A stretch of DNA of 64,000 nucleotides. It comes from an uncultured Thermoanaerobaculia bacterium. Lineage in GTDB: Bacteria; Acidobacteriota; Thermoanaerobaculia; Multivoradales; JAGPDF01. A program made the position numbers and the translations under genes. The stretch covers positions 3,869 through 67,868 of the forward strand of contig CAYZBH010000012.1 in assembly GCA_964476605.1 (NCBI GenBank). Direction: 5' to 3'. The notes beneath the pieces are model-generated. The model searched no databases and was not told the DNA's origin. It worked only from the letters and a program-made list of their open reading frames with translations. Every line of letters begins with the position of its first letter. The first letter of the stretch is position 1. Below, in pieces: positions 5,360 to 33,273 of this stretch.

Positions 5360-6141
5360 GCTCGCGCGCGTCGCTCGTCGACTCGCACGCGCATCTCCAG
5401 AATCTCGACCGCGAGGAGCGCCGAGCGGCGCTCGAGCGCGCCCGCGAGCGCGGCGTCGACGGCGTGCTGGTTCCCGCGACGGAGCTCGCGCAAGCGGACG
5501 ATCTGCTCGACTTCTGCGACCGTGAGGTGGGGGTTTGGTGCGCGCTGGGGGTGCATCCCCACGAGGCTTCGGGGTGGCGGAGCGGCGACGAGAAACGATT
5601 GCGCGCCCTGTTGGACCATCCGAAGGCCGTCGCGGTGGGGGAGTGCGGGCTCGACTTCTTCTACGACCACGCGCCGCGCGACGTGCAGGAGCGGGTCTTC
5701 CGGGCGCAGATCGAAGTGGCGCTCGACGCCGGTCTTCCCGTCGTCGTCCACAACCGGGACTCCAACGAGGTCATGCTCGCGGTGCTCTCGGATCCGGCTT
5801 ATCGCGGCCTCCGGATCGATCTGCACTCCTTCGCCGGCGGACTCGCGATGGCGCGGGCGGCGCTCCCGCTCGCGAGCTGGTTCGGGCTCTCGGGGATGAT
5901 CACCTTTCCCAAGGCCGAGAACGTCCGCGAAGTGCTGCCGGAGATCCCGCGCGAGCGCCTCCTGGTCGAAACCGACTCTCCCTACCTGGCGCCGGTGCCC
6001 CATCGCGGCAAGCAGAACGAGCCGGCCTACGTGGTCGAGGTCACCGAACGCCTCGCCCGGGAGCTCGGCCTCTCCTTCGATGAAACGGCGGCCCTCACCA
6101 CCGAGAACTTCTTCGGGCTCTTCTCAAAGGCGCGCGGGTAG
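5356..6141 (+). CDS. tatD: TatD-family metal-dependent DNase/hydrolase
   Basis: GTG start overlapping the metG stop (GTGA). 'LVDSHAHL' and 'GECGLDFFYDH' motifs. The metG-tatD adjacency is widely conserved. Confidence 0.9.
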   Translation: MSSRASLVDSHAHLQNLDREERRAALERARERGVDGVLVPATELAQADDLLDFCDREVGVWCALGVHPHEASGWRSGDEKRLRALLDHPKAVAVGECGLDFFYDHAPRDVQERVFRAQIEVALDAGLPVVVHNRDSNEVMLAVLSDPAYRGLRIDLHSFAGGLAMARAALPLASWFGLSGMITFPKAENVREVLPEIPRERLLVETDSPYLAPVPHRGKQNEPAYVVEVTERLARELGLSFDETAALTTENFFGLFSKARG

Positions 6142-6150
6142 ATCGGAAAC

Positions 6151-6190
6151 CTCGGTTCCTCGGTTTCTCGGTTTCTCGGTTTCTCGGTAG
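6151..6190. repeat. 5x tandem octamer CTCGGTT(T/C) immediately 3' of the tatD stop
   Basis: Direct reading: ctcggttc ctcggttt ctcggttt ctcggttt ctcggtag. Confidence 0.9.
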
Positions 6191-6580
6191 CCTAGGTTCC
6201 CCCTATCGCGTCCGGTCCGATCTCCCCGCGCCGGGACCGGCGGGCGCTGTACGCTAGCCAACGGAGGGCGCCCGCCTCCGCTTCGGCCTCGCCGGGGCGT
6301 TTCCGATTGCCAGGGATTTCGACTGCTCGGCCTCAGAGGCCCCTCTGCGGGGAGCTCCGCCCGGACGCTGCCCCCGCCCCAGTGCTCTCGAGGATCCGAA
6401 GACGATGGCAACTCTTCGGGGGAGAGGCCGGCGGGGGAAGGCGGAGGAGACGCGACGTGCCTCGCAAAGCGTTGCGAGCCGGAGCCCCCTCGGGAGATTG
6501 GAGTCTTCACCCGACGGCCGGGGATGGGGGAGCGACGGCTATCGAGAGACTGAGAAACTGGGCGGGACCTTCGCCGGCGC

Positions 6581-21705: not shown

Positions 21706-22851
21706 ATGCAGATCGAGCTCAACGAAGATCAGGTGCTGCTGCGCGACACGGTGCGTCGCTTCGCGGCGGACGTCGTCGCGCCGCGCGCCAAGGCGATCGA
21801 CGCGTCGGGCGAGTTCCCGCTCGACTACTACCATCAAGCTGGAGAGCTCGGCCTCGCCGGGGTCTACGTTCCGGAGGCCTACGGCGGCGCCGGCATGGAC
21901 ATGGTCGCCTACTGCGTGATGATGGAGGAGATCTCCAAGGTCTGCGCGTCGAGCGGCGTGATCCTCTCGGTGAACAATTCCCTGGTCTGCGATCCGCTCC
22001 TCAAGTACGCCACCGAGGAGCAGAAGCACCGGTTTCTGGCGCCGCTCGCCGCGGGGGAGAAACTGGGCTGTTTCGCGCTCACCGAGCCAGAGGCCGGCAG
22101 CGACGCGGGCTCGCTCCGTTCGACGGCGCGGCGCGACGGCGATCACTACGTACTCGACGGCAGCAAGGTCTTCATCACCAACGGGACGCACGCCGACATC
22201 GCCATCGTCTTCGCGAACAGCCAACCCGAGAGGAAGCAGAAGGGGATCTCGGCCTTCATCGTGCCGACCGACACGCCGGGATTCGCGCGCGGCCACCACG
22301 AATACAAGTTGGGCGTTCAGGCTTCCGGGACCACGCAGCTCTTCTTCGAGGGGATGCGCGTGCCCGCGGACCAGCGGCTGGGAGAAGAGGGCGAAGGGTT
22401 CAAGATTGCCATGTCGACGCTCGACGGCGGTCGGATCGGCATCGCGGCGCAGGCGGTCGGCATCGCGCAGGGGGCCTTCGAGGCGGCGCTCGCGTACGCC
22501 AAGGAGCGGCGCCAGTTCGGCCGCCCGATCGCCGATTTCCAGGCCATCCAGTTCTACCTCGCCGACATGGCGATGGAGCTCGATGCCGCGCGCCTGCTGG
22601 TCTTCAAGGCCGCTTGGGCGAAGATGACGCAGAAGCGCTACAGCCTGGAGGCGGCGCAGGCCAAGCTCTTCGCCTCCGAGATGGCGCAGCGGGTCACCAG
22701 CAAGGCTCTGCAGATCCACGGCGGCTACGGCTACACCCGCGAATACGACGTCGAACGCTTCTTCCGCGACGCACGCATCACCGAGATCTACGAGGGGACG
22801 AGCGAGATCCAGAAGCTCGTGATCTCCGAGTGGATCCTCCGGGAGAGCTGA
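21706..22851 (+). CDS. acyl-CoA dehydrogenase (short/branched-chain type)
   Basis: 381 aa. 'CFALTEPEAGSDAGS', 'GGYGYTREYDVERFFRDARITEIYEGTSEIQ'. Canonical ACAD catalytic Glu near the C-terminus. Confidence 0.9.
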   Translation: MQIELNEDQVLLRDTVRRFAADVVAPRAKAIDASGEFPLDYYHQAGELGLAGVYVPEAYGGAGMDMVAYCVMMEEISKVCASSGVILSVNNSLVCDPLLKYATEEQKHRFLAPLAAGEKLGCFALTEPEAGSDAGSLRSTARRDGDHYVLDGSKVFITNGTHADIAIVFANSQPERKQKGISAFIVPTDTPGFARGHHEYKLGVQASGTTQLFFEGMRVPADQRLGEEGEGFKIAMSTLDGGRIGIAAQAVGIAQGAFEAALAYAKERRQFGRPIADFQAIQFYLADMAMELDAARLLVFKAAWAKMTQKRYSLEAAQAKLFASEMAQRVTSKALQIHGGYGYTREYDVERFFRDARITEIYEGTSEIQKLVISEWILRES

Positions 22852-22860
22852 GCCCGCGCC

Positions 22861-24009
22861 ATGCCGGTGGATTTCTCCTTCACCGAGGAACAGGAGCTGC
22901 TCCGCCAGGAGGTCCGCCGCTTCGCCGAGGAGCGGATTCGCCCCGGCCTGCGCGAACGCGACCGTGAGCATCGCTTTCCGGCGGACATTCTCCGCGAGAT
23001 GGGCGAGATGGGGCTGCTCGGAATGCTCGTGCCCGAGGAGCTCGGAGGCGCCGGCCAGTCGCCGCTGACCTATTGCCTCGCGGTCGAGGAGGTCGCCAGC
23101 GTCTGCCCGTCCACCGCCGTCTCGATGAGCGTCACCAACTCGGTCTGCCAGTGGCCGATCGTCCAGTTCGGAACGCCCGCGCTCCAGCGGCGGGTGCTGC
23201 CGGAGCTCGCCTCGGGAGAGGCACTGGGGGGGTTCGGGCTCACGGAGCCGGAGTCGGGGAGTGATGCCGGGGGGATGACGTCGCGGGCGCACCGCGACGG
23301 CTCCGACTGGGTGCTCGACGGACAGAAGGCCTGGATCACCCACGCCGGCGTCGGGAAGTGGTTCGTTGCCTTCGCCAAGACGGACCCGGACGCCGGCAAG
23401 CGAGGGATCTCCGCCTTCGTCATTTCGGCGGAGTGGCCCGGGTTCCGGCGCGGAAGCGCCGAGGAGAAGCTCGGCTTGCGCGCCTCGGACACCGGGGCGC
23501 TCTATTTCGAATCGCTCCGCGTGCCGGGGGAGTTCCTGCTGGGCGAGGAGGGGCAGGGTTTCCACATCGCCCTGGCGACGCTCGACCACTCCCGTCTCGG
23601 CATCGCCGCGCAGGCCGTGGGCATGCATCGGCGCGCGCTCGAGCTCGCGCTCGAGTACGCCAAGGAGCGGCGACAGTTCGGCGTGCCGCTCGCCGAGCAC
23701 CAGGCGATCCGGTTCACCCTGGCCCGGATGGCGACCGAGCTCGCCGCCGCGCGCGCCCTGCTGCACCAAGCCGCGCTGGTGTCCGGCCGGCGTTCGGAGG
23801 CGGGGCGGCTCGCGTCCGAGGCCAAGGCCTTCGCCTCCGAGGCCGCCAACCGCGCCTGCTGGGACGCGTTGCAGGTCCACGGTGGGAACGGCTTCTGCGA
23901 GGACTACGAGATCGCCCGCCTCTACCGCGACGTTCGCGTGACGACGATTTACGAAGGCACGAGCGAGATGCAGCGCCTGGTGATCGCGCGCCACCTGCTC
24001 GCGTCGTGA
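22861..24009 (+). CDS. acyl-CoA dehydrogenase (second paralogue)
   Basis: 382 aa. 'GFGLTEPESGSDAGG', 'HGGNGFCEDYEIARLYRDVRVTTIYEGTSEMQ'. Confidence 0.9.
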   Translation: MPVDFSFTEEQELLRQEVRRFAEERIRPGLRERDREHRFPADILREMGEMGLLGMLVPEELGGAGQSPLTYCLAVEEVASVCPSTAVSMSVTNSVCQWPIVQFGTPALQRRVLPELASGEALGGFGLTEPESGSDAGGMTSRAHRDGSDWVLDGQKAWITHAGVGKWFVAFAKTDPDAGKRGISAFVISAEWPGFRRGSAEEKLGLRASDTGALYFESLRVPGEFLLGEEGQGFHIALATLDHSRLGIAAQAVGMHRRALELALEYAKERRQFGVPLAEHQAIRFTLARMATELAAARALLHQAALVSGRRSEAGRLASEAKAFASEAANRACWDALQVHGGNGFCEDYEIARLYRDVRVTTIYEGTSEMQRLVIARHLLAS

Positions 24010-24965: not shown

Positions 24966-25613
24966 ATGACGGCCCAGCCGCCTGATCTCGCGGAGCTTCG
25001 CGAGGCGATCGTCGCCGGCGATGGTGGCCGGGCGCGGGAGCTCGCGCGCCTCCACCTCGCGGCGGAGGGGGATCCCGTCGCCGCGGTCGAGCTCGGATTC
25101 GGAGCGGGGCTGAGGCGGGTCGGCGAGCTCTGGGAGAGCGGCGACTATTTCCTGCCGGAGCTGGTCCAGGGGGCCGAAGCGATGAAGAGCGCCATGGCGG
25201 AGCTCTTGCCGGCGCTCGCCGCGCGGGCGGGAGGTGTGACCTGCCGCGGCCGGGTGGTGCTCGGAACCGTGCGCGGGGACCTGCACGACATCGGCAAGAG
25301 CCTGGTCGGCGTCCTGCTCGCGGCGCACGGCTTCGAGATCCACGACCTCGGCGTCGACGTCCCCGCGGAGGCGTTCGTCGCCAGGGCGCGCGAGGTCGGC
25401 GCGGAGATCGTCGCCGCCTCGGCGCTGCTCACGACGACGATGGTGGGACAGCGGAGCCTCGCCGAAGCGCTCCGCGCCGCGGCGCTTCCGAGCCGGCCGC
25501 GGCTCCTGGTCGGCGGCGCGCCGACCACCCCGCGCTGGGCGGAGGAGATCGGCGCCCACCATGCCGAGAACGCGCTGCGCGCCGTCGACGTCGCGGCGCG
25601 ACTGGTTTCCTGA
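24966..25613 (+). CDS. cobalamin-binding corrinoid protein (MtbC/MtgC/MetH-B12-domain type: B12-binding_2 cap + Rossmann B12 domain)
   Basis: DxHxxG motif 'GDLHDIGKS', 'SALLTTTM' and 'LVGGAP' motifs. 215 aa. Confidence 0.85.
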   Translation: MTAQPPDLAELREAIVAGDGGRARELARLHLAAEGDPVAAVELGFGAGLRRVGELWESGDYFLPELVQGAEAMKSAMAELLPALAARAGGVTCRGRVVLGTVRGDLHDIGKSLVGVLLAAHGFEIHDLGVDVPAEAFVARAREVGAEIVAASALLTTTMVGQRSLAEALRAAALPSRPRLLVGGAPTTPRWAEEIGAHHAENALRAVDVAARLVS

Positions 25614-26491
25614 TGTCCTTCTCGAATCGCCTCGCCCGTGGCCCCTGCCTGCTGTGGGACGGCGGGATGGGCACCCTGCTGATGGCGCGGGGACTGGCGG
25701 CGGGCGAAGCCCCCGAGCGCTGGAATCTCGAGCGCCCAGAGGAGGTCCGTGCCGCGCACGCCGATTACGTCGCCGCGGGCTGTGACGTGGTGCAGACCAA
25801 CACCTTCGGCGCCCACCCGCTCCGTCTGGAGCGCTTCGGATTCGCGGAGCGCTGCGAGGAGATCGCAACGCGCGCCACGGCGCTCGCACGAAGTGCGGCT
25901 GGCACGTTCGTCGTCGGGGACCTGGGACCCGTGGGGGAGCTCCTACCTCCGGTCGGAACCGGAGACCCGGTGCGCTTCCGCGCGGGCTATCTCCGGCTCG
26001 CCCGGGCGCTCGCGGAGGCCGGATGCGATGCCCTCCACGTCGAAACGCAAAGCGATCTCGCCGAGGCCCGGATCGCCCTCTCCGCGGCGCTCGAGGCCGC
26101 TCCTGGGCTCCCCGTCCTGGTCTCGCTCGCGTTCGAGCGGCGGCCACGCGGCTTCTTCACGGTGATGGGGAATCCGCTGCTCGCATCGCTCGACGAGCTC
26201 GCGCGCCGGGGCGCCTCGGCGGTGGGGGCGAACTGCTCGCTCGCGAGCGGCGACATGGCGGTGCTCGGGCGCGAGCTGCTCGCTGGCACGGGCGCGCGGA
26301 CGCTCTTCCAGCCGAACGCGGGGCGTCCCGAGCCCCGTGCCCGAGGCTTCGTTTACACGCAGGAACCACGCGAGTTCGCGGCCGACCTCGCGCCCCTCGC
26401 GGAGGCCGGCGCAGCGGCGCTCGGCGGCTGCTGCGGCACCGATCCCCGGTTTCTCCGGGCGCTCCGCGACCTGCTCGACGAGGGCCCGTGA
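25613..26491 (+). CDS. homocysteine S-methyltransferase domain protein (PF02574; MetH N-terminal Hcy-binding barrel type)
   Basis: ATG overlapping the preceding stop (TGATG). 'CDVVQTNTF', 'VGANCSLASG' and 'LGGCCGT' supply the Cys, CysCys zinc ligand pattern of MetH/BHMT homocysteine-binding domains. Confidence 0.8.
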   Translation: MSFSNRLARGPCLLWDGGMGTLLMARGLAAGEAPERWNLERPEEVRAAHADYVAAGCDVVQTNTFGAHPLRLERFGFAERCEEIATRATALARSAAGTFVVGDLGPVGELLPPVGTGDPVRFRAGYLRLARALAEAGCDALHVETQSDLAEARIALSAALEAAPGLPVLVSLAFERRPRGFFTVMGNPLLASLDELARRGASAVGANCSLASGDMAVLGRELLAGTGARTLFQPNAGRPEPRARGFVYTQEPREFAADLAPLAEAGAAALGGCCGTDPRFLRALRDLLDEGP

Positions 26492-27172: not shown

Positions 27173-28621
27173 ATGGTTCGCTGCGCGCTCTTCGACGCGA
27201 CCGAGGTCGCCGCCCTCGTCGACGAGGCCCGCGCGGTGCTCGCGCGCGTCGGATTCGGGGTGGAGAACGCCGCGGGGGCCGAGCTCCTCTCCGCCGCAGG
27301 CGTGCCGCGGCGAGCGGGACGGTTCCATCCCGACGGCGCCACGCTGGAGAGGGCGCTCGCGAGCGCGCCACGCCGCTTCGTCCTCTTCAGCCGTTCCGGC
27401 GAGCCGGCGCTTCGCTTCGGGGAAGGTCTGGTTCAGTTCGACCCGGGATCGGCCGCCGTCTACCGGCTGGACGGGGAGCGGGAGGAGCGACGCCTGGCAC
27501 GCGCGGCGGACCTGGTGGATCTCGCGCGCCTCGTGGAGGATCTCCCGGCCTACGCGGCGCAGTCCACGGCACTCGTCGCGAGCGATGTCCCGGGCAGCCT
27601 CTCCGACAGCTACCGACTCTGGGTCGCGCTCGCCTTCGGCCGCAAGCCGGTGGTGACGGGGACCTTCTCGAAGGAGTCGTTCGCGGTCATGCGCGACATG
27701 CTGGTGGCGGTGCGGGGGGACGAGGGGAGGCTGCGCGCCCAGCCGCTCGCCCTCTTCGATTGCTGTCCGACCTCCCCGCTCACCTGGACGGACCTCACGG
27801 CCCAGGCCCTCGTCGACTGCGCGCGCGCCGGAATCCCCGCGCAGATCGTGCCGGTGCCCCTCACCGGCGCGACGTCGCCCGTCACCCTGCGGGAGACGGT
27901 CGTGCAGCACGTCGCCGAGAGCCTCTCCGGTCTGTTGATCCACCAGCTGGCGTCTCCCGGAGCACCCGTGGTCCTCGGCGGCGCCCCCGCCGCGTTCGAC
28001 ATGCGCCTGGGGACGGCCGTCATGTCCGCGCCGGAGAGTCTCCTCTTGCAGGTTGGATTCGCGCAGGTGGCGCGTCACCTCGGGATCCCCTGTCACGGCT
28101 ACCTCGCTCTCTCGGATGCGAAGCGCCCCGACTACCAGGCGGGCATGGAGAGCGCCGCCGGGGCCGTGATGGGAGCCCTCGCGGGCTTCGATCTCATCTC
28201 CGGCCCGGGGCTCCTCGATTTCCTCCTCACTCAATCCTTCGAGAAGCTCCTGCTGGACCACGACGCCTGCCTGCTCGCGCTCCGCCTCGTCCGGGGCATC
28301 GAAGCGCGCGGCGGCGACGCCATCGAGCTCATCGGGGCGGCGGTCGCGAACGGCCAGATGCTCGGCCACCCGCACACGCGTCGCCATTACCGCGAGGAGC
28401 TCGCGACCCTCTCCCGGCTCGTCGATCGGTCGACCTACGGAGACTGGGAGGCGGCAGGTTCCCGGGACGCCGCGTCGCGTGCCCGCGCGGAGGTCGCGCG
28501 AAAGCTCGCAGTGGAGCCCGCGGGCGAGCTCGGGGGAGGTGTCCGCGAGGATCTCGATCGCGTGCTGGCCGCGGCGGCGCGCGCGCGGGGAGTCGAGCTG
28601 CCGGCCCTCGCCGGGGTGTAG
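27173..28621 (+). CDS. MttB-superfamily methyltransferase (trimethylamine/glycine-betaine:corrinoid methyltransferase family), non-pyrrolysine member
   Basis: 482 aa uninterrupted ORF with no internal amber codon. '[12 protein letters not shown]...[15 protein letters not shown]...[14 protein letters not shown]...[13 protein letters not shown]...[16 protein letters not shown]' is collinear with MttB/MtgB TIM-barrel proteins. Confidence 0.85.
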
Positions 28622-28704: not shown

Positions 28705-30432
<1,728 letters not shown>

Positions 30433-30437
30433 AACCG

Positions 30438-30935
30438 ATGGCCGACACCGTCTCCACACTACGCGGACTCCTCGCCTACACGATGTGGGCCGATCGGGCC
30501 GTTCTCGAGGCGCTCAAGGGGGTCAGCCCCGAGGACGCGATGCGCGAGACGGGGAGCAGCTTCGGTTCGGTCCTCGGCACCATGGCGCATATCCTCGGCG
30601 CGGAGCAGCTCTGGCTCTCGCGCCTGCTGGGCATCCCCTTGACGCACCTGCCGAGTCGCGACGACTTCCCGACCGTGGAGCTCCTCGCCGCGAGCTTCGA
30701 GGACTTCTGGCCGCAGCTCGAGTTCTTCCTCGCCACGTTGTCGGGCGATCAAGTCGATGCCGACTTCGCGTGGACGAACTTGCGGGGCGAGGCGCGCTCC
30801 GCGCCGCTCCGGCAGGTGCTCCTCCACGTGGTGAATCACTCGACCTACCATCGGGGGCAAGTCGTCTCCCAGTTGCGCCAGCTCGGCTATTCGCCGCCCT
30901 CGACCGATCTCGTGGAGTACCGTGGCGCCGTCTAG
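30438..30935 (+). CDS. DinB/YfiT-like (DUF664) four-helix-bundle metal-binding protein
   Basis: 165 aa. 'LLAYTMWADRAVLEAL' and 'HVVNHSTYHRGQV' His motifs typical of the DinB_2 family. Confidence 0.75.
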   Translation: MADTVSTLRGLLAYTMWADRAVLEALKGVSPEDAMRETGSSFGSVLGTMAHILGAEQLWLSRLLGIPLTHLPSRDDFPTVELLAASFEDFWPQLEFFLATLSGDQVDADFAWTNLRGEARSAPLRQVLLHVVNHSTYHRGQVVSQLRQLGYSPPSTDLVEYRGAV

Positions 30936-32835
30936 CGACGCCCTGGCAGCTCGCGGAGAACGATCGTCCCGATCGCCGACCTGGCTGGCGCACTTGGCGT
31001 TCTGCTCGGGGCTCGTCTTGGCGCTCTCTTCCGGGTGCATGCGGGAAGAGGGCGCCAGGCCCAGCGAACGGTTGATCGAGCACGGCGAGGTGACGACTGC
31101 GTCGCTCGGGGACGGGGAGCACCCCGAGGTGCCCGAGTCCTGGCTGGCGGACGTCGCGATGGTTGCTCCGCCAAATCGTGTCGTGAGCCTGGCCCGACGC
31201 CGGCTGCCGGACGGCGATGGCTACGACCAGCGCGCCTCGATCGCGGCCCCCGCAGGGAGCCGCTACGTCTTCGACCTCGACCTGCCGAAGCGCCCGACGC
31301 TCCGGCTCGCCTGGGCGGCCGGCGCCCCGGAGGGGCGCGAGGGAGAGTCGTGGAGCCTCGCGTTTCGCGCCGCCGTGGAATCGGACGGAGGCTCCCCGGT
31401 GGAGGTGTCGCAGGGGACGGTCACGTCGCGCGACAGGCTGGCGGGGTGGAACGAGGCGACCGTCTCCCTCGGACGATGGGCCGGGCGTCACGTCAGGCTG
31501 GCGCTTGAGACCTCGGGTGACCCGTTGCCCTGGGGTGCCTGGGCGAATCCGATCGTCGACGCAGGACCGAGCGCGCGGCCCAATCTCATCCTGATCAGCG
31601 TCGACACCGTGCGCGCGGATCACCTCGGTGCGTACGGCTATAGGCGCCGTCCGACGACCCCGCGGCTCGACCGCTTCGCGGCCGACAACATCCGGTTCGC
31701 ATGGGCGATCGCGCAGGCGCCGTGGACACAGCCTTCCCATCAGGCGATGCTCTCGGGAATCTATCCGGCCTCCCGAGGCGAGCTCGAAAGGGTCTATCTC
31801 GCGCGCGTCCTCTGGCACGCGGGGTATCGCACGCTCGCGCTGACCGGCGGTGGTCAGGTGGACGTGCGCTTCGGGTTCGACCGTGGATTCGAGGCCTTCC
31901 GGCTCTCCGACTGGATCCATGCGCCGGAGGAGACGGTGCGCTGGACCGCGAGCCGAACCTCCGGCCCGTTCTTTCTCTTCCTTCACACCTACGAAGTCCA
32001 CGAGCCCTACACGCACGACGAATTCGCGCGCGCCATGCCGCCGGGACGTCTCGGGACGACCTTCAGCAAGGACCTCTGGCAGCACATGGGAAAGGTCTTC
32101 ACCGAAGAAGAGATGGCCTACATCGAGGCGCTCTACGACGGTGACCTGCGGTACACCGACGAGAAGTTGGGGCAGTGGTTCGAAGCAGCGGCCCGGGCGG
32201 GCTGGCTGGACAACTCGATCATCGTGGTGACGAGCGACCATGGCGAGCAGTTCTGGGAGCACGCGACCTGGGGGCATGGACAGAGCCTGCACGATCACCA
32301 GCTGCACGTTCCGCTGCTCGTCCATCTGCCCCCGTCGGTGCGCGCCCGCCTCGGCGCTCGTGCGCTCGCACCGGGCTCGGTGGTCGCGGACCAAGTGCAA
32401 CTGATCGACCTCTATCCGACGCTGCTGGAGCTGCTGCAGATTCCCGCCGAGAGCCGCGTCCAGGGGACCTCCGTCGTGCCGCTGCTCGCCGGCGAGGCGA
32501 TGGCGCCGCGCGAGGCCTTCGCCGAGCGGACGAACGTTCGCGCCTACGAGTCGAAGGCCCTGCGGACGCTGCGCTACAAGTTCATCTACTCCTTTCCCAG
32601 GCGCGAGACCGCGCTCGACCGGCCGCCCCTGGAGCTCTTCGACTTGAGGCGCGACCCGGGCGAGCAGACCAACCTCGCCGCCCTGCAGCCGGACGTGGTC
32701 GCGGGCCTGAAGGAGCGTGTTCTCGCCATCTCGGCCGGCGGCGATCTCGCCGGGGATTCCGACGAGAATCCGCCGCTCGACGCCGACCTGGCCGCCAAGC
32801 TCCGGGCCCTGGGCTATCTGGACAACGGGCGATGA
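30922..32835 (+). CDS. sulfatase-like hydrolase/transferase (alkaline-phosphatase superfamily), predicted lipoprotein
   Basis: GTG start. Lipobox 'LVLALSSGC'. Catalytic-core 'LILISVDTVRADHLGAYGY' and 'VVTSDHGEQFWEHATWGHG'. Lacks the C/S-x-P-x-R formylglycine motif and has Thr at the nucleophile position, so it is a phosphotransferase-like branch rather than a true arylsulfatase. Confidence 0.8.
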   Translation: MAPSSDALAARGERSSRSPTWLAHLAFCSGLVLALSSGCMREEGARPSERLIEHGEVTTASLGDGEHPEVPESWLADVAMVAPPNRVVSLARRRLPDGDGYDQRASIAAPAGSRYVFDLDLPKRPTLRLAWAAGAPEGREGESWSLAFRAAVESDGGSPVEVSQGTVTSRDRLAGWNEATVSLGRWAGRHVRLALETSGDPLPWGAWANPIVDAGPSARPNLILISVDTVRADHLGAYGYRRRPTTPRLDRFAADNIRFAWAIAQAPWTQPSHQAMLSGIYPASRGELERVYLARVLWHAGYRTLALTGGGQVDVRFGFDRGFEAFRLSDWIHAPEETVRWTASRTSGPFFLFLHTYEVHEPYTHDEFARAMPPGRLGTTFSKDLWQHMGKVFTEEEMAYIEALYDGDLRYTDEKLGQWFEAAARAGWLDNSIIVVTSDHGEQFWEHATWGHGQSLHDHQLHVPLLVHLPPSVRARLGARALAPGSVVADQVQLIDLYPTLLELLQIPAESRVQGTSVVPLLAGEAMAPREAFAERTNVRAYESKALRTLRYKFIYSFPRRETALDRPPLELFDLRRDPGEQTNLAALQPDVVAGLKERVLAISAGGDLAGDSDENPPLDADLAAKLRALGYLDNGR

Positions 32836-32874: not shown

Positions 32875-33273
32875 ATGAGCGCCAAGGGCATGCGGGTGTT
32901 GATCGCCAAGCCGGGGCTCGACGGGCACGATCGAGGAGCCAAAGTCGTGGCGCGCGCGCTGCGTGATGCCGGCTACGAGGTCATTTACAGCGGGCTGCGG
33001 CAGACGCCGGAACAGATCGCGGCGGCGGCGGTCCAGGAGGACGTGGACGCGGTCGGCCTGTCGATCCTCTCCGGAGCGCACAACCGTCTCCTTCCGGAAG
33101 TGACGCGGCTGCTGCGGGAGGCGGGGGCCGACGATGTCTTGGTGTTCGCAGGCGGCATCATCCCGGATCGGGACATCGCCGGCCTCAGGAGCGCGGGCAT
33201 CGACCAGGTCTTCCTGCCGGGAACGTCGACCGGGGACATCGTCAAGTACCTCGAGACCCGCTTGGACGGCTGA
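32875..33273 (+). CDS. methylmalonyl-CoA mutase B12-binding small subunit
   Basis: 132 aa. '[23 protein letters not shown]' (DxHxxG), '[13 protein letters not shown]', 'VFAGGIIP'. Confidence 0.85.

Follow-up and report, generated by a model that had tools for sequence, protein, structure and literature searches.

Which compound donates its methyl group to a pyrrolysine-free member of the MttB superfamily, and what finally receives that methyl group? The question is raised by a 64,000 nucleotide (64 kb) stretch of DNA from an uncultured Thermoanaerobaculia bacterium (Acidobacteriota; assembly GCA_964476605.1, contig CAYZBH010000012.1, positions 3,869 to 67,868 of the forward strand), hereafter the window. 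It contains an MttB-like gene that comes last in a four-gene operon, after genes for a corrinoid protein, a homocysteine S-methyltransferase and an activation protein. We consider it probable that this four-gene cassette is a folate-independent, B12-dependent methyl-X:homocysteine methyltransferase that makes methionine, with the MttB-like protein as its methyl-donor module. The informative part is the acceptor side, which comprises a homocysteine S-methyltransferase and a reactivation protein of MetH type rather than a tetrahydrofolate or coenzyme M (CoM) methyltransferase. These acceptor-side genes turn the question into which compound methylates homocysteine via B12. Full-text literature searches found no published description of this four-gene arrangement.

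The MttB-like gene and its partner proteins

Translation of the MttB-like open reading frame (ORF) yields 482 codons without an internal stop, as the original prediction had it. Its GC content by codon position (0.89 at third, 0.52 at second positions) is typical of coding sequence in a window of ~70% GC, its ATG lies 4 nucleotides (nt) past the stop of the preceding gene, exactly where the frame plot changes frame, and an identical protein is called on two further public contigs. Pfam MTTB (PF06253) matches the product with E=5.4e-74 (249 bits; cut-off 25) over nearly its full length, residues 4-463 aligning with profile positions 31-490 of 500. An AF2 structure model built on 30 homologues is confident (predicted local distance difference test, pLDDT, 88.7; predicted template modelling score, pTM, 0.89), and Foldseek template modelling (TM) scores are 0.93 to both Methanosarcina barkeri MttB (7xcl) and Desulfitobacterium hafniense MtgB (9yce), 0.90 to a Sinorhizobium meliloti homologue (4yyc) and 0.52 to the next family, MtmB. 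We regard as confirmed that this is a true gene whose product belongs to the MttB superfamily, with a TIM barrel and N- and C-terminal extensions. The MttB family comprises ~5,100 clusters at 50% identity in public data, and the best match among solved structures is MttB 7xcl (E=2e-46). Identity is 31% to MttB, 25% to MtgB, 28-30% to rhizobial plasmid homologues and 24-32% to alphaproteobacterial members of the family. A neighbour-joining tree, built without the Eubacterium limosum enzymes MtpB, MtcB, MtyB and MthB, places the cassette-type MttB-like proteins in a clade apart from MttB, MtgB and the rhizobial plasmid homologues.

The protein does not carry pyrrolysine. Pyl334 of M. barkeri MttB corresponds to Leu313, encoded by CTC, which bears out the earlier observation that no in-frame TAG occupies this site, and the equivalent column is Leu, Val or Met in 81 of 81 clade members, never a stop. 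The MttB structure paper (PMC9842639) links pyrrolysine function to Tyr364 and the Gly110-Thr111 cis-peptide; going by sequence alignment alone, Ser343 and Asp90-Pro91, respectively, stand in their place here. The score against the MttB equivalog model TIGR02369 is 280 bits, below its cut-off of 525. Neither a tRNA gene (in the 64 kb window) nor any pyl family (in Pfam scans of ~50 of its 56 predicted genes) was found, in agreement with the original remark that pylTSBCD genes are not visible nearby. Stop codons of the 55 complete predicted genes are TGA in 39 cases, TAG in 16 and TAA in none, and the MttB-like ORF itself ends in TAG, which speaks against a reading of UAG as pyrrolysine in this organism. 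Leu313, the loss of the pyrrolysine-supporting residues and the low TIGR02369 score together make trimethylamine an unlikely donor, as had been proposed from the ORF. An MttB homologue without pyrrolysine is ordinary in itself, such members having been known since 2014.

The Rfam model PYLIS_3, which represents the mttB pyrrolysine insertion element, scored just over its gathering threshold in two clade members (L054, 6931-7030; L058, 6937-7036), in both at the pyrrolysine-equivalent region of a non-pyrrolysine homologue, and had no match in the window. As a sense codon stands at that site, we ascribe these matches to conservation of the coding sequence, which suggests that the model partly captures protein-coding conservation.

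The four cassette genes lie on one strand (Table 1) with junctions of -1, -4 and +4 nt. The corrinoid protein has a His-on motif of the DxHxxG type (GDLHDIG) and is nearer the methylamine-type proteins MttC and MtgC than the B12 domain of MetH: its best PDB match is MttC (7xcn, E=1.6e-44), ahead of the MetH B12 domain (1bmt, 5e-28), and its best NCBIfam match is MtgC (193 bits, under the cut-off of that model). The homocysteine module is closest to the homocysteine domain of Thermotoga maritima MetH (1q7m, E=3e-40), and its alignment keeps the three zinc cysteines (NCS, GGCCGT) and the equivalent of the homocysteine-binding Glu146 (hvETqsd).

The activation protein is labelled just 'hypothetical protein' in public records, so automated pipelines miss the cassette. 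As a single sequence it gives a weak Pfam match to Met_synt_B12 (E=0.013); a profile of 36 homologues matches TM0269 of T. maritima (PDB 1j6r) with E=7e-15 and full-length MetH (8g3h) with 9e-4. The 18 top Foldseek matches of its AF2 model (pLDDT 75.8) are all MetH activation domains, the next having E>1. Its conserved motifs are DAxGSAAAE, R.SPGYG.W and M.PRKS.SF, and R.SPGYG contains the RxxxGY-type motif of the MetH activation domain. Each of the four modules is identifiable with its motifs intact, and their co-occurrence is conserved.

Relative to MetH and TM0269, the activation protein has an extra cysteine-rich C-terminal tail, an invariant CxxCxxxxC at about residues 209-218 that lies past the end of the 1j6r match in a region of low AF2 confidence. 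The tail is retained in the distant activation proteins of L090 and L096, and electrons may enter there through a metal or iron-sulfur site.

Table 1. Positions of the cassette genes, of selected MttB-like residues and of adjacent genes in the window
Feature	Position	Strand	Basis or remark
Corrinoid (B12-binding) protein, 215 aa, helical cap and Rossmann domain	24966..25613	+	Pfam B12-binding_2 and B12-binding
Stand-alone homocysteine S-methyltransferase, 292 aa, MetH N-terminal-domain type	25613..26491	+	Pfam PF02574, E=1.3e-54
TM0269-like MetH activation protein (AdoMet-binding, reactivation), 226 aa	26488..27168	+	Family profile; AF2/Foldseek
Non-pyrrolysine MttB-superfamily methyltransferase, 482 aa	27173..28621	+	Pfam PF06253; AF2/Foldseek; presumed methyl-donor:corrinoid methyltransferase (MT1) module
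Asp196-Cys197-Cys198	27758-27766	+	Clade-specific invariant residues
His308-Gly-Tyr310	28094-28102	+	Clade-specific; position 308 His or Gln, Tyr310 invariant
Codon CTC (Leu313) at the site of the UAG/pyrrolysine codon of true mttB	28109-28111	+	Pairwise HMMER alignment to 7xcl, 'gsXsdak' vs 'alaLSDAK'
Two acyl-CoA dehydrogenases	21706-24009	+	Upstream of the cassette
Methylmalonyl-CoA-mutase-type large subunit	28705-30432	+	Pfam/NCBIfam
Sulfatase-family gene, lipoprotein-like N-terminus	30922-32835		Window copy
Methylmalonyl-CoA-mutase-type small (B12-binding) subunit	32875-33273	+	Parted from the large subunit by DinB-family and sulfatase genes

Distribution and variants of the cassette

A scan of one genome per GTDB species recovered at least 560 relatives of the MttB-like protein, and the best 80 were analysed for their loci (numbered with the prefix L). 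All of these 80 come from metagenome-assembled genomes (MAGs), which represent Thermoanaerobaculia and other Acidobacteriota, Eisenbacteria, Krumholzibacteriota, Latescibacterota, Myxococcota, Gemmatimonadota, Zixibacteria, Ignavibacteria and others; the nearest homologues are in Thermoanaerobaculia, with L005 at 69% identity. Partner genes were counted in those 69 loci of GTDB species representatives whose upstream DNA reached at least 2.4 kb. In 60 of these, spread over more than eight mostly uncultured phyla, the corrinoid, homocysteine methyltransferase, activation and MttB-like genes are colinear on one strand. Two others (L020, L068) have the last three genes, with no corrinoid gene detected upstream despite a long enough flank. 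Pairwise distances of the four cassette proteins are correlated across 57 loci (r=0.81-0.87), and none of 500 permutations gave values as high.

Clustering of all flank ORFs of the ~80 loci shows that the flanks vary between loci, so that the four genes behave as an autonomous unit: the commonest flank family occurs in at most 11 of the ~80 loci, with lineage-specific synteny in those dominated by Krumholzibacteriota. By their sequence motifs only, the commonest families look like a zincin-like peptidase, a thioredoxin-reductase-like flavoprotein, an isochorismatase-like hydrolase and a radical-SAM protein. Among the recurrent flank families of the ~80 loci there was no transporter, folate enzyme or PF00809 protein. 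The original statement that the window encodes no transporter for a substrate of this enzyme stands, since the Pfam scans detected none of the betaine, choline or carnitine type there, nor did any appear across the 80 related loci. In about ten of the loci L049-L083 (Krumholzibacteriota-dominated; motifs only) the flavoprotein gene and the isochorismatase-like gene lie directly 3' of the cassette, and this recurrent flavoprotein could be an electron donor for reactivation.

More distant relatives vary the arrangement. L090, whose MttB-like protein is 42% identical, has the same gene order as the window cassette; L093 (38%) has corrinoid, homocysteine methyltransferase and MttB genes; and L096 (37%) has the order MttB, activation, homocysteine methyltransferase and one other gene, followed by a corrinoid gene that is read from the other strand. 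A UroD-family gene (5632-6567) adjoins the corrinoid gene of this rearranged cassette; the methylcobamide:CoM methyltransferases MtaA and MtbA belong to that family, and the gene could be a second methyl acceptor module. One Eisenbacteria MAG encodes a clean in-frame fusion of the activation and MttB-like proteins (P0075). A second apparent fusion of 728 aa (P0096) was not counted, its activation match ending at SCRISPG; a frameshift or gene-call artefact is suspected.

Partner-less relatives at 35-37% identity lie in unrelated gene contexts. The MttB-family genes of Alphaproteobacteria adjoin an FAD oxidoreductase gene, and a locus on a Mesorhizobium plasmid also has a glycine-betaine ABC transporter. 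A nested subclade of MttB-like proteins has lost the cassette (L052, L056, L061, L069, L071, L077), and an S9 prolyl oligopeptidase gene adjoins the MttB-like gene in the first three of its loci. Other partner-less members (L074 and L095 among them) neighbour either a TRAP DctM transporter and an M20 peptidase or a peptide-binding protein and an M24/creatinase-like protein. These neighbours are suggestive of peptide-derived N-methyl compounds, which is not transferable to the cassette form.

Methyl donor, methyl acceptor and competing explanations

Residues that would contact the donor were mapped by sequence alignments backed by the confident predicted model. The glycine-betaine ligands of MtgB, set by mutagenesis and a ligand-bound crystal structure, are Y97, R312, H348 and F356 (PMC13080624). 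All four are replaced in the MttB-like protein, by S93, H308, S343 and L351, respectively; among the 81 clade members both serines (S93, S343) never vary, His or Gln stands at position 308, and Glu prevails at position 351. R312 is retained by MtcB, MtpB, MthB and MtyB (PMC13080624); its equivalent is not kept in the cassette-type clade. With all four ligands replaced, the arginine included, a role of the protein as one more betaine enzyme cannot be taken for granted. Glycine betaine bound in the manner of MtgB is, on this alignment, an unlikely donor, and the loss of the carboxylate- or phosphate-binding arginine would argue against the other known non-pyrrolysine substrates. The list of such substrates in the original prediction (glycine betaine, proline betaine, carnitine, gamma-butyrobetaine) is outdated, phosphocholine (MthB) having since been added, and its view that the methyl donor of the cluster is an open question is supported.

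What the clade has instead of these ligands is a set of invariant residues of its own (Asp196-Cys197-Cys198, Trp205, Tyr310 and Lys358 in the 81 members). In the AF2 model Asp196-Cys197-Cys198, His308, Tyr310 and Ser343 lie at or just past the C-terminal ends of the predicted barrel strands, which form the catalytic face. MttB, MtgB and the rhizobial homologues lack equivalents of Asp196-Cys197-Cys198 and His308/Tyr310, and as modelled the segments Asp196-Cys197-Cys198 and His308-Gly-Tyr310 may form a new substrate or metal site.

The proposed methionine-forming reaction would proceed in three steps. The MttB-like TIM-barrel protein would bind a small X-CH3 and methylate Co(I) of the adjacent corrinoid protein; the zinc-dependent homocysteine module would then pass the methyl group from CH3-Co(III) to homocysteine, yielding methionine; and cobalt oxidized to Co(II) would be restored by the TM0269-like protein through reductive methylation with S-adenosylmethionine and an electron, as in MetH. 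We infer the direction of transfer from established half-reaction chemistry in the MetH and MtgB/MtgC systems, and homocysteine would be the acceptor. The donor, if neither trimethylamine nor glycine betaine held in the MtgB fashion, is most likely another methylated amine. The cassette would in effect be a split MetH with an MttB-family module in the place of the folate-binding one, so that methionine synthesis would need no methyl-tetrahydrofolate.

The likeness to split MetH is closest in T. maritima (TM0268 and TM0269). Both systems have a homocysteine domain with a zinc cysteine triad, a cap and a B12 domain that bears DxHxxG, and a small activation protein encoded separately; that of the cassette matches 1j6r best in both sequence and fold. 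Huang et al. reportedly found in 2007, in Protein Science, that reactivation of TM0268 depends on TM0269. The methyl group used by MetH comes from methyl-tetrahydrofolate via a pterin-binding barrel, whereas the cassette has an MttB-family gene as its fourth member, with no PF00809 in the window; RamA and a CoM methyltransferase were likewise absent from the window in the Pfam scans.

The closest precedent of the cassette as a whole is MtgBCDE of marine Alphaproteobacteria (2025), which in Ruegeria pomeroyi, Phaeobacter inhibens and S. meliloti is both a modular demethylase of glycine betaine and a split methionine synthase (Mausz et al. 2025, PMC12478193). In Ruegeria and Phaeobacter a functional link joins the MttB-family enzyme MtgB to the corrinoid protein MtgC and to the homocysteine module MtgE (PMC12478193; bioRxiv 10.64898/2025.12.19.695462), and demethylation of a methylated amine is linked to methionine synthesis via B12 and a shared corrinoid protein. 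Common to both systems are an MttB-family enzyme, a separate corrinoid protein (PF02310) and a separate PF02574 homocysteine module, which are adjacent in the window. MtgBCDE requires the pterin-binding MtgD (PF00809) for both of its activities, whereas the cassette has no MtgD. Its genes are mostly scattered, with mtgB and mtgE inversely regulated, and the cassette is one operon. Reactivation in MtgBCDE is apparently of the RamA type, going by a figure legend (Fig. 1, PMC12478193), in contrast to the TM0269-like AdoMet domain of the cassette. MtgBCDE is alphaproteobacterial, and the MttB-like protein of the cassette falls in its own clade.

Single enzymes of the superfamily offer narrower comparisons. 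MtgB of D. hafniense, a glycine betaine:corrinoid methyltransferase (PDB 2qne, 9yce), likewise has Leu at the pyrrolysine position of the same fold, but passes its methyl group to tetrahydrofolate through MtgA, with RamA for reactivation. M. barkeri MttB, a trimethylamine:corrinoid methyltransferase, also shares the fold, but has pyrrolysine 334 with Tyr364 and Gly110-Thr111, and its downstream acceptor is coenzyme M.

Several points weigh against a dedicated route to methionine. All evidence for the function of the cassette is computational, and all clade members come from uncultured MAGs. At seven of the 69 loci the MttB-like gene has no cassette partner at all, from which the protein presumably also works in another context. 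The correlated distances of the four proteins are also expected for genes that are vertically inherited together. These genomes could have a pterin-binding methyltransferase gene at some other locus, in which case the methyl group might pass via tetrahydrofolate as in MtgBCD/MtgECD. A riboswitch would tie the cassette to methionine regulation, and no SAM, SAH (S-adenosylmethionine, S-adenosylhomocysteine) or cobalamin riboswitch was detected upstream of the cassette in the window and 21 related loci (Rfam, gathering thresholds).

A first alternative, which we hold to be rather unlikely, is a catabolic demethylase of the MtgBCD type that delivers its methyl group to tetrahydrofolate via a distant pterin-binding methyltransferase, while the homocysteine module only draws on the same corrinoid protein to make methionine in the ordinary methyl-tetrahydrofolate-dependent way, a scheme proposed for R. 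pomeroyi. This is the published model of the sole studied system that links these modules, in which one corrinoid protein serves both complexes under inverse regulation of mtgB and mtgE, and our PF00809 scan was confined to the window and the locus flanks rather than whole genomes. In the cassette, by contrast, the MttB-like gene is co-transcribed with the homocysteine module, their gene junctions overlapping or nearly touching, and the two are not inversely regulated; a pterin-binding gene is neither present in the window nor recurrent in the 80 loci; and the catabolic companions of alphaproteobacterial MttB-family genes (FAD oxidoreductase, glycine-betaine ABC transporter) are absent beside it.

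A second alternative, in our estimate improbable, makes the cassette a housekeeping methionine synthase in which the MttB-like protein has taken over the donor slot of MetH, its barrel binding methyl-tetrahydrofolate or a similar one-carbon carrier, or a metal-held non-amine methyl compound, at the new Asp-Cys-Cys, His/Tyr and Ser site, and not acting on quaternary amines. All modules of MetH are present save the folate one, whose place the MttB-like barrel fills; the barrel is fused to the activation domain in one MAG; no known amine or betaine ligand is retained; the new residues sit on the predicted catalytic face; and no transporter is linked. As a lead only, mttB without metH is reported in one survey for sediment MAGs (Desulfobacterota, Spirochaetota, Zixibacteria), which need not carry the cassette. 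We know of no MttB-superfamily member that binds folate or a metal, however, and the model bears only a remote structural resemblance (TM 0.31-0.36) to the folate-binding domains of MetH and O-demethylase systems. His308 is replaced by Gln in 12 of the 81 clade members, and a patchy cassette with varying flanks is more typical of an accessory module. If such a takeover were true, many uncultured Acidobacteriota, Krumholzibacteriota, Latescibacterota and relatives would have the cassette as their main methionine synthase, the MttB superfamily would gain a new catalytic class and methionine synthesis a fifth route, and many 'mttB' counts in soil and sediment metagenomes would be unrelated to methylamine turnover.

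That the protein is a true trimethylamine methyltransferase working without pyrrolysine is highly improbable: its sequence is slightly nearer M. barkeri MttB than MtgB by HMMER score (162 vs 137 bits), the segment following the pyrrolysine position closely resembles the XSDAKVPDDQAG of MttB and the PYLIS model just matches two clade members, but Leu stands in place of pyrrolysine, Tyr364 and the Gly110-Thr111 element are replaced, the score is far under the TIGR02369 cut-off, MtgB as the sole non-pyrrolysine member tested with trimethylamine is inactive, and to our knowledge no pyrrolysine-free enzyme activates this compound.

Neighbouring genes and wider meaning

The cassette is surrounded by genes for two acyl-CoA dehydrogenases, a glycosyltransferase, split methylmalonyl-CoA mutase subunits, a DinB-family protein and a sulfatase, none of which is conserved with the cassette elsewhere. 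The acyl-CoA dehydrogenases and mutase subunits lie on one strand with the cassette, separated by short gaps, and may be co-transcribed with it. The remaining window genes are housekeeping (MetRS, PNPase, IF-2, NusA, ValRS, DnaE, complex I). A promoter and terminator scan of the window was uninformative at 70% GC. A sulfatase-family gene occurs near the MttB-like gene in five loci (the window, L003, L009, L022, L081); this proximity could reflect chance or lineage synteny, or could hint at sulfated or esterified choline-type substrates.

The importance of the clade lies in its firm association, in many little-known phyla, with a homocysteine methyltransferase and a reactivation protein of MetH type, a linkage that predicts a folate-independent, B12-dependent route to methionine. 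Labels of 'trimethylamine methyltransferase' in methane- and carbon-cycling surveys of soil, sediment and groundwater are probably misread for this cassette-type clade. The cassette offers a concrete system of four proteins with a defined question, namely which compound methylates the corrinoid.

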